Shown: in pieces, positions 1 through 3,895 of the stretch | Layout: each line of letters opens with the position of its first letter | How positions within the stretch are numbered: position 1 is the first letter of the stretch | IMG/VR virus record: IMGVR_UViG_3300012000_000005 | Coordinates: 1-64,000 of that record | DNA length: 64,000 nucleotides | DNA from: a virus | Direction: 5' to 3' (one strand) | Notes under the pieces: generated by a model | What the model was told of the DNA's origin: nothing | What the model saw: the letters and a program-made list of their open reading frames with translations, nothing else | The model's database searches: none | Program-made: the position numbers and the translations under genes

Positions 1-233
1 TCAATGGTGCTCCAATCGAGTTGTGAAGCAAGGTTATTGTAGAGTCCGACCGCGTAGTCTTCCTCCATGTTACCTTCACGTACCTCTGACTTGAAGGTTG
101 TCTCTACCACATTGGATATGCGGTTAGATGTGTATTTGTTCGCTAAGTCGGTGGCGATAGTCTTAGCCTCTGCCACCTTCTCTTGAACGTCGCTATCGGT
201 GTAGATGTTCACACCGTCGGGCGTTGTAATCAC
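1..233 (-). CDS. Hypothetical early protein (partial, runs off window start)
   Basis: GTG at 233 after SD-like AAGGGGGA; open frame MITTPDGVNIYTDSDVQEKV... to position 1; read manually, not in ORF track. Confidence 0.7.
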   Translation of the reverse strand, partial: MITTPDGVNIYTDSDVQEKVAEAKTIATDLANKYTSNRISNVVETTFKSEVREGNMEEDYAVGLYNNLASQLDWSTI

Positions 234-332
234 TTGGGTATGTCCCCCTTGTCTCTTGTAAGAGGCTTTCTCTTACATAGGCTAATCTAATATAAGAATG
301 CGGCAATCTCTACTCACATTGGTAAATATTTG

Positions 333-477
333 ATAACAATTCCAGGGAAGTTATCCACAGGCTGCCGAGTTTGTGTTGGGCTGGCTGGCTATCTACTAAA
401 GCATTAGTAGATAGAGATAAGTAATAGCCAGCCAGCCAGCCCAACACAAACAAAAACCCCCGTGCTTGGCACGGGGG
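333..477. repeat. Intergenic cassette repeat unit 1: ATAACAAT, DnaA box, long hairpin, terminator
   Basis: TTATCCACA 351-359; perfect 22-bp inverted repeat 369-390/430-451; inner stem 389-399/404-414; GC hairpin 457-477 with T-tract on minus strand. Confidence 0.9.
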
Positions 478-492
478 CATTTGCTAGGCTTA

Positions 493-888
493 TTACAGCC
501 ATTGACTTACAGATTTATACACAGACGCTGGGACGCTCTGCTCGTTGGTCATACCCAACAACTTGATAGTCCTAGTAAGTTCTTCGTAATCACTATCGTG
601 ATACATACCTTGTGGTTTATCAGGTCGGTCAGGTGAAGCAGGAATAACAGCCTTATCAACAACGAACTCAATTTCTAGTGTGTTGTTCCACGAACGGAAG
701 CAGGTGTTCTTGACCTCTAACTTACCTTGCTTGGCTAACGCAACTACCTTCTCGGCAAACTTTGCGTTTTCCTTTTCATACTTTTCCTCTGCCTTCTTGT
801 ATTCGGCACGGAACTTGTCTTGCTCAGCAAGACGACTCTTGAGTGCGTCCAATAGGACTACTCTATCTACCTTTATGGTGGTTGCCAT
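493..888 (-). CDS. Hypothetical early protein (131 aa)
   Basis: ATG after AAAGGGG SD; fills the interval between repeat units 1 and 2. Confidence 0.8.
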   Translation of the reverse strand: MATTIKVDRVVLLDALKSRLAEQDKFRAEYKKAEEKYEKENAKFAEKVVALAKQGKLEVKNTCFRSWNNTLEIEFVVDKAVIPASPDRPDKPQGMYHDSDYEELTRTIKLLGMTNEQSVPASVYKSVSQWL

Positions 889-977
889 AAAAGCCCCTTT
901 CTCTTGTATCGGTATCTCCGATAGGACTATCTAATCATTTCTTGTTATCTATCTCAAGCGTAGTAGGTATCTTTTGT

Positions 978-1121
978 ATAACGATTTCTCTGGAGTTATC
1001 CACAGGCAGATGTTTGTGTTGGGGCTTTATATATGGGCAGGAAAAGACAACTACCCTGCCCATAAGCTCATATAAAGCCCCAACACAAACAAGAGAGCCC
1101 CCCGCTGGGTGCGGGGGGCTC
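978..1121. repeat. Intergenic cassette repeat unit 2
   Basis: ATAACGAT 978-985; TTATCCACA 996-1004; perfect 22-bp inverted repeat 1011-1032/1070-1091; inner stem 1032-1041/1055-1064; terminator hairpin 1095-1121. Confidence 0.9.
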
Positions 1122-1135
1122 GGGGGCGTTACGCG

Positions 1136-2143
1136 TTACGCGTTAGCGAATTCGCGGACCGCGGATAGAATGCGTGCCTTTTCGGCATTTACCATGGCGT
1201 CAAACCCGCTAGCAGCAGCCTTGATTGCCTCGCCATTGGCGGTGCGTGATGGACGGAAATAGTCCAGGCGCTCAGTTAGCGCATTAAGCGCACCCCATGC
1301 GGTCCCGCGGATTCCGTCCTGCGTAGGCGCCTTGAAATATAGGTCATTCAAGACGTCGATTTTTTGCGCATGCTTAGTGACAGTGCCTTTTGGCGCATTA
1401 TCATCAAGCGGATATATAGCGGTGAGCAACTTACCCCATTGAACATTGTCAACTGGCGTTTCGAATAAAGCCTTAGCCATAGATTCGAATTCGTCCATGT
1501 GATTGAATGTTAGGCCTAGCACACGGCGGGCCTCAGCGACGCGTCCCTCAACTTTTAAAGTGTGGCGCACTTTAAAAGATTGCTTAGTGGACTTTAGCGC
1601 CATGTTCAGCGTGTTTTGGCATACGACGCGTACGGGCGTAATTGACGCCTGCACACTGGCGCTACCGTCATGTGAAGAATGCACTAGTAAATAAGTGACA
1701 GTCTTATCAGCGACACCTTGCGGGTCTAGAATGAATTCGCGAGGTACAACTAGGCTACCGAATACGATTCGGCCGTCCTTGATTGAGCCAGCGGATTCCC
1801 ATTTGGCGCCACCGTCCAAAATATTATCGCCAAAATTGAAGAGGTCCTCATTTTGGAATACGGAATAGCGGTCACCTACGACGGAAAGCACGTCAGTGCC
1901 AGCGTCGACGGGATTAGTACGCACAACATAGTTGAGCGCGGATTTAGTACGATACCCTGCAGGATAGATGACTGGCTCAAGACGTACATTCCAGTCATTA
2001 AGCAATGCGCCCTTGAGCATGTCCGCGGTAGTAATATCCGCGTCCACGTCGAAAGTTGCATTTGCTAACCCATGCCATGCAGGGGCGCCACGTAGGGCAA
2101 AAGCAACTTGCCCGTTTTCGTGAGTTTCGAGGTTATGAGCCAC
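1136..2143 (-). CDS. DUF932 / TIGR03299-like phage-plasmid protein
   Basis: Motifs AWHGL, SHDGS, TPVRVVCQNTL, VRHT, GTAWGALNALTE typical of DUF932; GTG start at 2143 follows AAAGGGGAG. Confidence 0.85.
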   Translation of the reverse strand: MAHNLETHENGQVAFALRGAPAWHGLANATFDVDADITTADMLKGALLNDWNVRLEPVIYPAGYRTKSALNYVVRTNPVDAGTDVLSVVGDRYSVFQNEDLFNFGDNILDGGAKWESAGSIKDGRIVFGSLVVPREFILDPQGVADKTVTYLLVHSSHDGSASVQASITPVRVVCQNTLNMALKSTKQSFKVRHTLKVEGRVAEARRVLGLTFNHMDEFESMAKALFETPVDNVQWGKLLTAIYPLDDNAPKGTVTKHAQKIDVLNDLYFKAPTQDGIRGTAWGALNALTERLDYFRPSRTANGEAIKAAASGFDAMVNAEKARILSAVREFANA

Positions 2144-2240
2144 GATTCTCCCCTTTCGCATAAGGATAGGCGGGTGCCTATCAATGGCCAGCCTATCATA
2201 GGACGCGCTAGTACTATCTCATTCTCTGCATAACATATTT

Positions 2241-2392
2241 ATAACAATCTCCAGATAGTTATCCACAGCCGCGAATGTTTGTGTTGGGCTGCTTATTGGG
2301 CACTAGGACTAGCTATAACGCCAGTTGCTAGTCCAGCCCAGAGCCATAAGCAGCCCAACACAAACAAAAAGCCCCGCATTTCTGCGGGGCTT
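2241..2392. repeat. Intergenic cassette repeat unit 3
   Basis: ATAACAAT 2241-2248; TTATCCACA 2259-2267; perfect 21-bp inverted repeat 2276-2296/2346-2366; inner stems; terminator hairpin 2369-2392. Confidence 0.9.
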
Positions 2393-2408
2393 CTTGGTTA
2401 GGGGGTTG

Positions 2409-2588
2409 TTACTTCACACCGCAAGCGGTGAGAAACTTATCCCTTTGAAAGTTAGCGTTATCTGCGCCGTAGATAATCGCCAACTCGTAGGCAACCTTCT
2501 TCAATACTTCTTCATTTGCGGGGTTCATCAGTTGTTTGATGATTTCCGCGTGCGCCTTGTAGGTGGCGCGGTGCCACTTAGTAGCCAT
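2409..2588 (-). CDS. Small hypothetical early protein (MATKWHRATY...)
   Basis: ATG at 2588 after GGAGG; C-terminal DNANFQRDKFLTACG resembles a common phage micro-protein motif. Confidence 0.7.
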   Translation of the reverse strand: MATKWHRATYKAHAEIIKQLMNPANEEVLKKVAYELAIIYGADNANFQRDKFLTACGVK

Positions 2589-2802
2589 GTTTTGCCTCCA
2601 AGTCTTCCTCAACTCGTGACTCAATCCATGAGTCATAAGCGTATTCCGCTTCTAACTTGTGCATGCGCTCGCAATCATCACAGACCGCGTCCGCTTGTCC
2701 TTCACTATAACCGCGAAACCAGCCAGCGCGGTAAGAGAAGAAGAAAACAACACCAGCAAGAATAAGGTCAATCATCAGATTGAAACCATTATAAAACATC
2801 AT
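2578..2802 (-). CDS. Small membrane-anchored hypothetical protein
   Basis: N-terminal hydrophobic segment; coupled to neighbours. Confidence 0.65.
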   Translation of the reverse strand: MMFYNGFNLMIDLILAGVVFFFSYRAGWFRGYSEGQADAVCDDCERMHKLEAEYAYDSWIESRVEEDLEAKHGY

Positions 2803-2942
2803 GCTGACACCTTCGCCTTCTGCTCATTGGCGCAATCGTAGCAAATGCGCTCGATTTGCTCCATGCACTCTAGAAGAAACGCATCTACTCCCGAGAATAC
2901 GATATTCTCAGAGGTATCACATACTCCACACTTGCCGAACAT
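2799..2942 (-). CDS. 47-aa putative zinc-binding protein (CxxC...CxxC)
   Basis: Manual translation MFGKCGVCDT...ICYDCANEQKAKVSA; first gene after the unit-4 promoter. Confidence 0.65.
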   Translation of the reverse strand: MFGKCGVCDTSENIVFSGVDAFLLECMEQIERICYDCANEQKAKVSA

Positions 2943-2986
2943 AACAACCTACCTATTCTATAAGCGCCCCTTGCGCTTATGAGATA

Positions 2987-3015
2987 ACACTACAACAACA
3001 CACCGACAACACCAA
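2987..3015 (-). promoter_or_regulatory. Sigma70-type promoter of cassette 4
   Basis: TTGGTG-N17-TAGTGT on minus strand, 6 nt before leader hairpin 2960-2980. Confidence 0.55.
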
Positions 3016-3035
3016 GCCGACACGATTACAGATTT

Positions 3036-3174
3036 ATAACAATTTCTAAAAGTTATCCACAATCTCTTCAACAACTCCCTATAGAACGGGGTGGGTGGGC
3101 CAACACAAACTTTGGCAGGCTTCGGGTTTGGCGCCCTAAATAATAAAGGCCCGAGGGGGAAGTCTCGGGCCTTT
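3036..3174. repeat. Degenerate cassette repeat unit 4
   Basis: ATAACAAT 3036-3043; TTATCCACA 3053-3061; only right arm CCAACACAAAC 3100-3110; terminator hairpin 3145-3174. Confidence 0.8.
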
Positions 3175-3177
3175 GGT

Positions 3178-3348
3178 CTAGAAACAACAACTCATTGTGC
3201 AATGAGGTTGATGTCCTCGTGTGAATGGTTCATGACTTGGGCCATGTCCTTCACATCTATCGCACCCAACTACGGCGCGGTATTCGTGAGGCTTATCGTT
3301 GCACCCATTAGCCTCCCAGGTGCAGACTCGTGTTTCATATTCAAGCAT
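3178..3348 (-). CDS. Small Cys/His-rich hypothetical protein
   Basis: ATG at 3348 overlapping upstream stop; CDRC and HCTMSCCF. Confidence 0.6.
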   Translation of the reverse strand: MLEYETRVCTWEANGCNDKPHEYRAVVGCDRCEGHGPSHEPFTRGHQPHCTMSCCF

Positions 3349-3568
3349 GGAGCTCAGACCTCCATTCCTTGTATAACACTTGGGCCCTGCGTGGGTGGGT
3401 GATGATTTCAATCGCCATGTCTATGGTGTAGAGAGTCTTGGTGTAGCGTATGCGTGGCTTATCCTCCATGAACCACATCAAGCGCCCCACTGGTGAGTTC
3501 AGGTCATGAGGCCCTACATAGCGAGCGCGTCGGCGCTCGCTAAGTAGGTCTAGAAATCGGGCAATCAT
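3341..3568 (-). CDS. Hypothetical protein (75 aa)
   Basis: ORF track; ATGA overlap with upstream gene. Confidence 0.65.
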   Translation of the reverse strand: MIARFLDLLSERRRARYVGPHDLNSPVGRLMWFMEDKPRIRYTKTLYTIDMAIEIITHPRRAQVLYKEWRSELHA

Positions 3569-3753
3569 GCGGAGGCCTTGATAGTGCCGACAATATCGGC
3601 GGCCTTCTGGAAACCATCAGCCATACCCTGAGAGTATGCGTTGCTTACAAGCCCTACTAGTAGAGACTCAACTGAGTTTCTAACATCAGGCGCGGTGAGT
3701 TTGAGAACAAGAGCGATAGCCTCGCTTCTAGCCTCGTTTTGACCTAGTGACAT
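3565..3753 (-). CDS. Hypothetical protein (62 aa), first gene of leftward block
   Basis: ATG after AGGGG SD and leader hairpin. Confidence 0.7.
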   Translation of the reverse strand: MSLGQNEARSEAIALVLKLTAPDVRNSVESLLVGLVSNAYSQGMADGFQKAADIVGTIKASA

Positions 3754-3794
3754 TTTATATCCCCTAACTAGTGAGCGCCTTGCTCACTGGGATA

Positions 3795-3823
3795 AACATA
3801 TGCGATAGCCCTAGCATACGCAA
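3795..3823 (-). promoter_or_regulatory. Sigma70-type promoter of cassette 5
   Basis: TTGCGT-N17-TATGTT on minus strand, 6 nt before leader hairpin 3770-3788. Confidence 0.6.
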
Positions 3824-3843
3824 GCGCACATGGTCTCAGATGT

Positions 3844-3895
3844 ATAACAATTTTATCCACATATCCACACCCCCCACCCTTAAGTCTGTGGATAA
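3844..3895. promoter_or_regulatory. DnaA-box cluster (unit 5) at divergence point
   Basis: ATAACAAT 3844-3851; TTATCCACA 3853-3861; ATATCCACA 3861-3869; TGTGGATAA 3887-3895. Confidence 0.8.

Follow-up and report, generated by a model that had tools for sequence, protein, structure and literature searches.

The 64,000-nucleotide stretch of DNA analyzed here (the window) comprises bases 1–64,000 of the 95,461-bp virus record IMGVR_UViG_3300012000_000005 from IMG/VR, a contig rated 99% complete, and raises the question of why a phage should carry, between the genes of one module, repeated perfect copies of the bacterial DnaA box. On the evidence set out below, which comes from sequence comparison, we put at about one in two the probability that host DnaA binds these boxes and gates transcription of the gene cassettes that follow them; the cassette genes would then probably be tied to the replication state of the host.

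The 9-mer TTATCCACA is present six times in the window, on the plus strand at 351, 996, 2259, 3053 and 3853 and on the minus strand at 3887, against an expectation of 0.53 copies, and none of 100 shuffles reached a count of six. A seventh copy was found at 95012, together with ATAACGAT at 94994, and the rest of the 95,461-bp contig holds no more. All seven copies are located between open reading frames (ORFs), and all fall within a single minus-strand cassette module. The initial annotation, which had reported six perfect 9-mers, all of them intergenic, and had suggested setting a genome-wide count against expectation, is borne out on both points. The 9-mer fits the DnaA-box consensus TTWTNCACA (PMC5835720) and does so in seven perfect copies per contig, while one-mismatch copies are not enriched outside the box stretch.

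Relative to the direction of transcription, six of the seven boxes of the contig have the same orientation. The exception belongs to the divergent region at 3853–3895, where three boxes are packed into 43 nt and an AT-rich run lies about 90 nt off. In unit 5, the perfect box at 3853 is only 1 nt from ATAACAAT, and the usual position, at 9 nt, is taken by the overlapping one-mismatch box ATATCCACA at 3861, an arrangement that is retained in relatives; the perfect box also forms an inverted pair with the box at 3887, and an inverted pair is likewise found in the relatives L029 and L148. The existence of tandem boxes, and of boxes in either orientation, is better explained by a reader of monomeric sites, such as DnaA, than by a −35 hexamer. 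Among the secondary boxes of the relatives are TTATTCACA, TTATACACA and TTTTCCACA, and three of the seven secondary variants tallied fit TTWTNCACA, where 15% would be expected (p ~0.07 by a hand estimate). In the window, TTATACACA, which differs at the tolerated position 5, is also found at 515–523, in the same orientation, inside the 3' end of the gene for a 131-aa protein and adjoining the terminator of unit 1; this copy may be due to chance.

The units to which the boxes belong are built alike (Table 1). Read along the transcribed strand, each runs from the stop codon of the previous cassette through a terminator, a long hairpin, about 8–10 nt, the box as TGTGGATAA, a gap of 9–10 nt, the element WYGTTAT (in full A-W-Y-GTTAT) and a second GTTAT-like word 11 nt downstream of it to a predicted promoter, which is followed by a short 5' stem-loop and a strong Shine-Dalgarno sequence. 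That each minus-strand cassette is its own transcription unit is the best explanation of this organization. The promoters are predicted from a recurrent pattern: 20 nt past GTTAT there is a −35-like hexamer (TTGCGT, TTGGTG, TAGAGA or ATGAGA), followed, after a spacer of 16–18 nt (mostly 17), by the word TANNNT in 19 of the 28 distinct units of this phage and its close relatives. In orthologues TANNNT is retained even as its letters change (TAGTGT, TATTGT, TAGTTT, TAGTCT). With respect to the predicted start, the box would be centred at about −79 and the two GTTAT words at about −59 and −48. A box had earlier been placed upstream of every early promoter of the phage; it is indeed found at every cassette-type unit, but the designation "early" was an assumption.

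Table 1. Positions of boxes and accompanying control elements in the window; promoters are predicted
Feature	Position	Strand	Remarks
DnaA-type box, unit 1	351..359	−	TGTGGATAA on transcribed strand
DnaA-type box, unit 2	996..1004	−	
DnaA-type box, unit 3	2259..2267	−	
DnaA-type box, unit 4	3053..3061	−	
Two overlapping boxes, unit 5	3853..3869	−	perfect box 3853–3861; one-mismatch ATATCCACA 3861–3869
Inverted box toward plus-strand genes	3887..3895	+	with 3853 gives TTATCCACA-N25-TGTGGATAA
WYGTTAT elements, units 1–5	333..340, 978–985, 2241–2248, 3036–3043, 3844–3851	−	
Direct repeat GTTAT-N6-GTTAT (11-bp period)	322–340, 967–985, 2230–2248, 3025–3043		upstream of −35
Predicted sigma-A-type promoter, unit 1	284..312	−	TAGAGA-N17-TAGATT
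Predicted promoter, unit 2	928..957	−	TTGAGA-N18-TAGATA; weaker, without T at −7; assigned by eye, TANNNT scan gave no match
Predicted promoter, unit 3	2195..2222	−	ATGAGA-N16-TATGAT
Predicted promoter, unit 4	2987..3015	−	TTGGTG-N17-TAGTGT; orthologues TATTGT, TAGTTT, TAGTCT
Predicted promoter, unit 5	3795..3823	−	TTGCGT-N17-TATGTT
Long hairpin, fixed arms GTTTGTGTTGGG/CCCAACACAAAC	369..451, 1011–1091, 2276–2366	−	unit 4: one arm only, 3100–3110
Intrinsic terminators of upstream cassettes	456..478, 1095–1121, 2365–2396, 3145–3174	−	

To follow the boxes beyond this phage, relatives were gathered by scanning IMG/VR for the composite word, which returned several contigs with two to five copies, and by homology to the DUF932 protein of a cassette, which returned more; all of these are fragments of 10–64 kb. 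Lineage A consists of this phage, L034/L145 (96–99%), G010 (80–88% DNA identity to G000 across the module) and G009 (86% protein identity). Within it the 9-mer is invariant except in two units, in contrast to a spacer and outer flanks that diverge, and in an information profile the block of 2-bit positions is exactly the nine bases, with weaker preferences around them for G at −3, C or G at +10 and T at +11. The geometry is fixed as well (box, 9–10 nt, WYGTTAT, about 20 nt, −35, N17 and TANNNT of the predicted promoter), and the 9–10-nt gap between box and WYGTTAT is held though the letters of the spacer diverge. Lineage B is represented by G006 (52% protein identity, 40% G+C), where a 47.8-kb fragment has four perfect boxes in 2.7 kb; two form the tandem TGTGGATAAC-TC-TGTGGATAAC, and downstream of the boxes come GTTAT-N6-GTTAT and canonical TTGACA-N17-TATAAT promoters. 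Conservation in relatives, named at the outset as a check on the boxes, is thus near-invariance in close relatives and presence in a relative at 52% identity. In this phage and three relatives, the boxes are restricted to the intergenic DNA of the cassette module. Among GenBank phages, no close relatives were found by megablast, and no box cluster was present in phages that share its terminase, namely the Streptomyces phage BRock group (55%) and Bacillus phage BCD7 (41%).

If host DnaA is to read the boxes, they should resemble the sites of a plausible host. The phage encodes a WhiB-family protein (contig 73649–73966; L123:9649–9966), its NrdJ is closest to those of Micrococcales and its terminase to those of Streptomyces phages, and its G+C content is 40–49% in 2-kb windows and about 45% overall; because of the WhiB protein, the affinity of NrdJ and the G+C content, the host is likely to be a low-G+C actinobacterium. 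One NrdJ match sits in a 1.5-Mb freshwater Actinomycetota metagenome-assembled genome (MAG), and we compared the dnaA loci (81 kb in all) of 31 genomes of 1.2–2.2 Mb from the order of that MAG. In these loci, which stand for a candidate host type since the host is deduced from phage genes, perfect TTATCCACA occurs 69 times in 81 kb, where about 0.6 copies are expected, and the high-G+C form TTGTCCACA only eight times. A tandem, CAGCC-TGTGGATAAC-AT-TGTGGATAG, is conserved some 20 nt upstream of the dnaA start codon (L157–L186) and is presumably an autoregulatory operator in this order of small-genome actinobacteria. Its flanks (CAGCCTGTGGATAAC) are the flanks of phage unit 1 (GCAGCCTGTGGATAAC), and its 12-nt tandem is the same as in lineage B. 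Whole genomes of the order contain 5–14 perfect boxes; the phage contig has seven, and one more falls in the assembly gap described below.

NrdJ homologues (62–76% identity) were also seen on the lake-MAG contigs L128, L134, L136, L137 and L142, whose bins are assigned to Flavobacterium, Gammaproteobacteria, Luteolibacter, Cyclobacteriaceae and Beijerinckiaceae. Misbinning of phage contigs is the probable explanation; in the three NrdJ-bearing MAGs that were searched (L128, L136, L137), the box–GTTAT motif is absent.

DnaA is a known transcription factor (PMC5835720). We propose that host DnaA would occupy the boxes as an upstream co-regulator of sigma-A-type promoters with weak −35 hexamers, acting together with whatever binds the GTTAT pair, and that cassette transcription would track the free DnaA available in an infected actinobacterium. 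With weak −35 hexamers and a site located upstream of them, activation is the sign of the effect that we favour, at low certainty. Replicating phage DNA would plausibly also sequester DnaA, and this second effect could even be the main selected role. The two effects might also be joined in a switch and clock, with free DnaA turning the cassettes on through the 7–8 top-affinity boxes of each genome until the boxes on multiplying phage copies outnumber DnaA, starve the host origin and, as occupancy is diluted, shut the cassettes off, so that copy number would act as a timer; we consider this scheme unlikely.

Several observations weigh against control by DnaA. The units are paralogous and derive from one ancestor, so that seven copies are not seven independent events, and the host is itself deduced from WhiB, NrdJ and G+C. 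The distance from box to promoter differs in G006. In lineage C (G007/G008, 65% protein identity) the two units seen have no box; they retain the terminator, the hairpin arms and ATAAC-N6-ATAAC, and since such units exist, the box is dispensable for the unit. Finally, the recognisable DNA-binding candidates of the phage are WhiB and a MerR/HTH_17-like protein (68287–68760; L123:4287–4760), and many of its small proteins that belong to no family could read the site. The coupling to DnaA put forward in the initial annotation thus gains from the separate sigma-A-type promoter downstream of the box and from the match to dnaA sites of candidate hosts, but loses from the box-less state of one related lineage.

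The alternative that these points would suit, and which we regard as rather unlikely, is that TGTGGATAAC, by itself or with the GTTAT words, is read by a phage-encoded protein or by some host protein that is not DnaA, the identity of the 9-mer with a DnaA box being coincidence or mimicry. The box is always accompanied by further conserved elements (two GTTAT words and the hairpin arm), lineage C keeps the GTTAT words and the arm without it, the phage encodes WhiB and the MerR/HTH_17-like protein besides small proteins that are mostly family-less, and the −35 is directly adjoined by GTGTC in G006 and in unit 4. Yet the conserved block equals the 9-mer in both sequence and extent, its flanks match the dnaA-proximal box of the candidate host-type genomes, and the site lacks symmetry and is found in either orientation as well as in tandem. 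Wherever a cell's DnaA reads TTATCCACA, moreover, it would occupy a perfect box anyway. A DnaA-like reader of the phage's own was rejected, as no DnaA C-terminal domain (domain IV; Bac_DnaA_C) is encoded anywhere in the contig, which extends the earlier statement that the window contains no dnaA gene; the small proteins adjoining the divergent region belong to no DNA-binding family.

A particular form of this alternative, a phage regulator that binds the whole dyad, had been named by the initial annotation as what would refute its interpretation, and is disfavoured. The word ATAAC(A/G)AT does lie 9–10 nt from the box in units 1–4, as had been described (10 nt in units 1–3, 9 nt in unit 4), but the gap of the ATAAC/GTTAT dyad is N12 in units 1–3 and N11 in unit 4, and not N12/13. 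In lineage A the gap is N12/N11, in G006 it is N3, and in lineage C the dyad is replaced by a direct repeat, ATAAC-N6-ATAAC; since half-site spacing varies among lineages, a dimeric regulator reading the whole dyad is unlikely, and the dyad operator of a dimeric phage repressor was rejected. ATAAC-N12-GTTAT owes its appearance to the GATAAC with which the box ends; no mirror partner exists for the box's TGTG half. The control-region word that is most widely conserved is instead the direct repeat of GTTAT with its 11-bp period, which was found in all three lineages, in either orientation (outside the window, in intergenic regions of L154 and L155). Direct repeats of 11-bp period are typical of winged-helix regulators that bind in tandem.

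We consider it distinctly unlikely that DnaA binds the boxes merely as part of a sink stripping the host origin, or is recruited for phage replication at 3853–3895, with the link to promoters a by-product of the duplication of control units. The number of perfect boxes would suit a sink, since seven per phage contig and one in the gap compare with 5–14 in host-type genomes, and tandem perfect boxes are common in viral contigs; an origin would be in keeping with the three boxes in 43 nt at the divergent region, with the AT-rich run about 90 nt away, and with replication genes that include a DnaB-like helicase, a primase, PolA and RecA, among which no initiator was recognised. Conversely, with one box per cassette, 0.6–1.3 kb apart, the arrangement is unlike datA or an origin: a datA-like locus or DnaA-dependent origin is a dense, short cluster with an integration host factor (IHF) site or an unwinding element, whereas here only 3853–3895 is dense, with no adjoining AT-rich unwinding element. 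The constant orientation of six of the seven boxes with respect to transcription, and a gap to WYGTTAT that lineage A holds at 9–10 nt while the letters of the spacer diverge, also argue against this reading.

That the box is itself a core promoter element, either as a TGGATA −35 with an extended −10 of the form TGnTATAAA or within an alternative-sigma promoter, is highly improbable. Units 3 and 4 would allow TGGATA-N16-TATAAA, but in nearly all units TATNNA is the word straight after the first GTTAT and there is no T at −7, so that the box is not the −35 of a promoter built on that word. A better promoter of constant geometry lies 20 nt downstream, and the boxes are inverted, tandem and, in G006, at other distances ahead of TTGACA-N17-TATAAT; pairing the box as −35 with GTTATA as −10 was rejected on these grounds. 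Nor, in nearly all units, is there a TANNNT 16–18 nt beyond the hexamer of the box, as a sigma-70-type core with the box as −35 would have; the consistent TANNNT stands 43 nt after the end of GTTAT. Promoters of the extracytoplasmic function (ECF) or sigma-28 type were rejected because their spacing is unsuited and no sigma factor was found among the phage proteins. The consensus spacings of ECF-type promoters exceed 11–12 nt; the AAC-to-YGTT spacing here, at 11–12 nt, is too short for them.

Next to the predicted promoters, the word GTGTC was noted. In G006 (L154), several TTGACA-N17-TATAAT promoters have, directly next to their −35, GGCGTGTC, which is the WhiA word GACAC in reverse; within the window, GTGTC lies beside a −35 in unit 4 only (3016–3020).

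The module in which the boxes reside occupies both ends of the contig. The minus strand carries every gene in 1–3753 and in 89000–94888, and plus-strand genes begin at about 4096. The ends of the contig reflect a break in assembly within the cassette module, and are not genome termini: L034, a 97% identical relative, has 1,841 nt (L034:6176–8016) between what are the last and first bases of the contig, comprising the remainder of the first gene (161 aa when complete) and an extra cassette (ORFs of 177, 79 and 173 aa) with its own box. Because L034 bridges the ends with a box-bearing cassette, the module is continuous over the break, with limits at about 3753 and about 89000. The long hairpins, placed between a terminator and the next box, are very stable (z = −10 to −12), and their arms are invariant while their interior is variable yet self-complementary; they also occur at L155:8872–9098 and are retained even in the box-less lineage. 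An insulator, an RNase III site or a recombination site for cassette exchange are candidate roles, and an RNA family scan of the units found no known family above its threshold. Elsewhere in the contig, the region of the WhiB and MerR-like genes also contains SpoVS-like, proteasome-beta-like and Hsp20 genes.

Promoters regulated by DnaA are well established in bacteria, and include those of dnaA itself (autoregulation), nrdAB and mioC in E. coli, dnaA and sda in B. subtilis, and gcrA and ftsZ in Caulobacter. The phage units resemble them in having consensus boxes near a promoter, and the acI-like genomes compared here carry tandem boxes right before dnaA; they differ in that the boxes are on a phage, one per cassette and about 80 nt upstream of the predicted start, and are accompanied by tandem GTTAT words. 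Phages also borrow sites of other host regulators, such as the LexA boxes of temperate phages and the PhoB boxes of cyanophages. As there, a host transcription-factor word would here, on our proposal, be used to sense the state of the host, but the regulator would be the replication initiator, with its site recurring through one module. DnaA-dependent origins of plasmids and phages, such as P1 oriR and pSC101, and the datA locus share with this phage high-affinity boxes able to sequester or recruit DnaA, at a number per phage similar to that of a whole small host genome; in this phage, however, the boxes are dispersed at promoters and not gathered in a locus of ≤1 kb, and no IHF site, unwinding element or iterons were identified. 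Titration of DnaA has been reviewed (PMC5835720).

A phage parallel is lambda, in which promoters near the origin respond to DnaA and box-like sites are protected by DnaA in footprinting evidence cited in PMC3985674. Both are cases of phage promoters with host DnaA sites, here predicted from sequence, but the lambda sites are imperfect, few in number and situated downstream of one or two origin-tied promoters, whereas the boxes described here are perfect and lie upstream of at least six cassette promoters. More than 119 IMG/VR viral contigs carry two perfect DnaA boxes 2–4 nt apart, a number that looks high; because tandem perfect boxes are so common, the use of DnaA by phages is, as such, not rare. 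A literature search, on the other hand, found no paper on perfect DnaA boxes ahead of each promoter in a phage gene module.

With a site that is perfect, repeated, conserved and matched to the dnaA operator of host-type genomes, the case is unusually testable. If DnaA does act at these promoters, a lytic-type phage of abundant freshwater actinobacteria would couple a whole accessory module to the replication initiator of its host. This would give the phage a simple means to sense whether a slow-growing cell merits exploitation, and host replication could be blocked without a dedicated phage protein.

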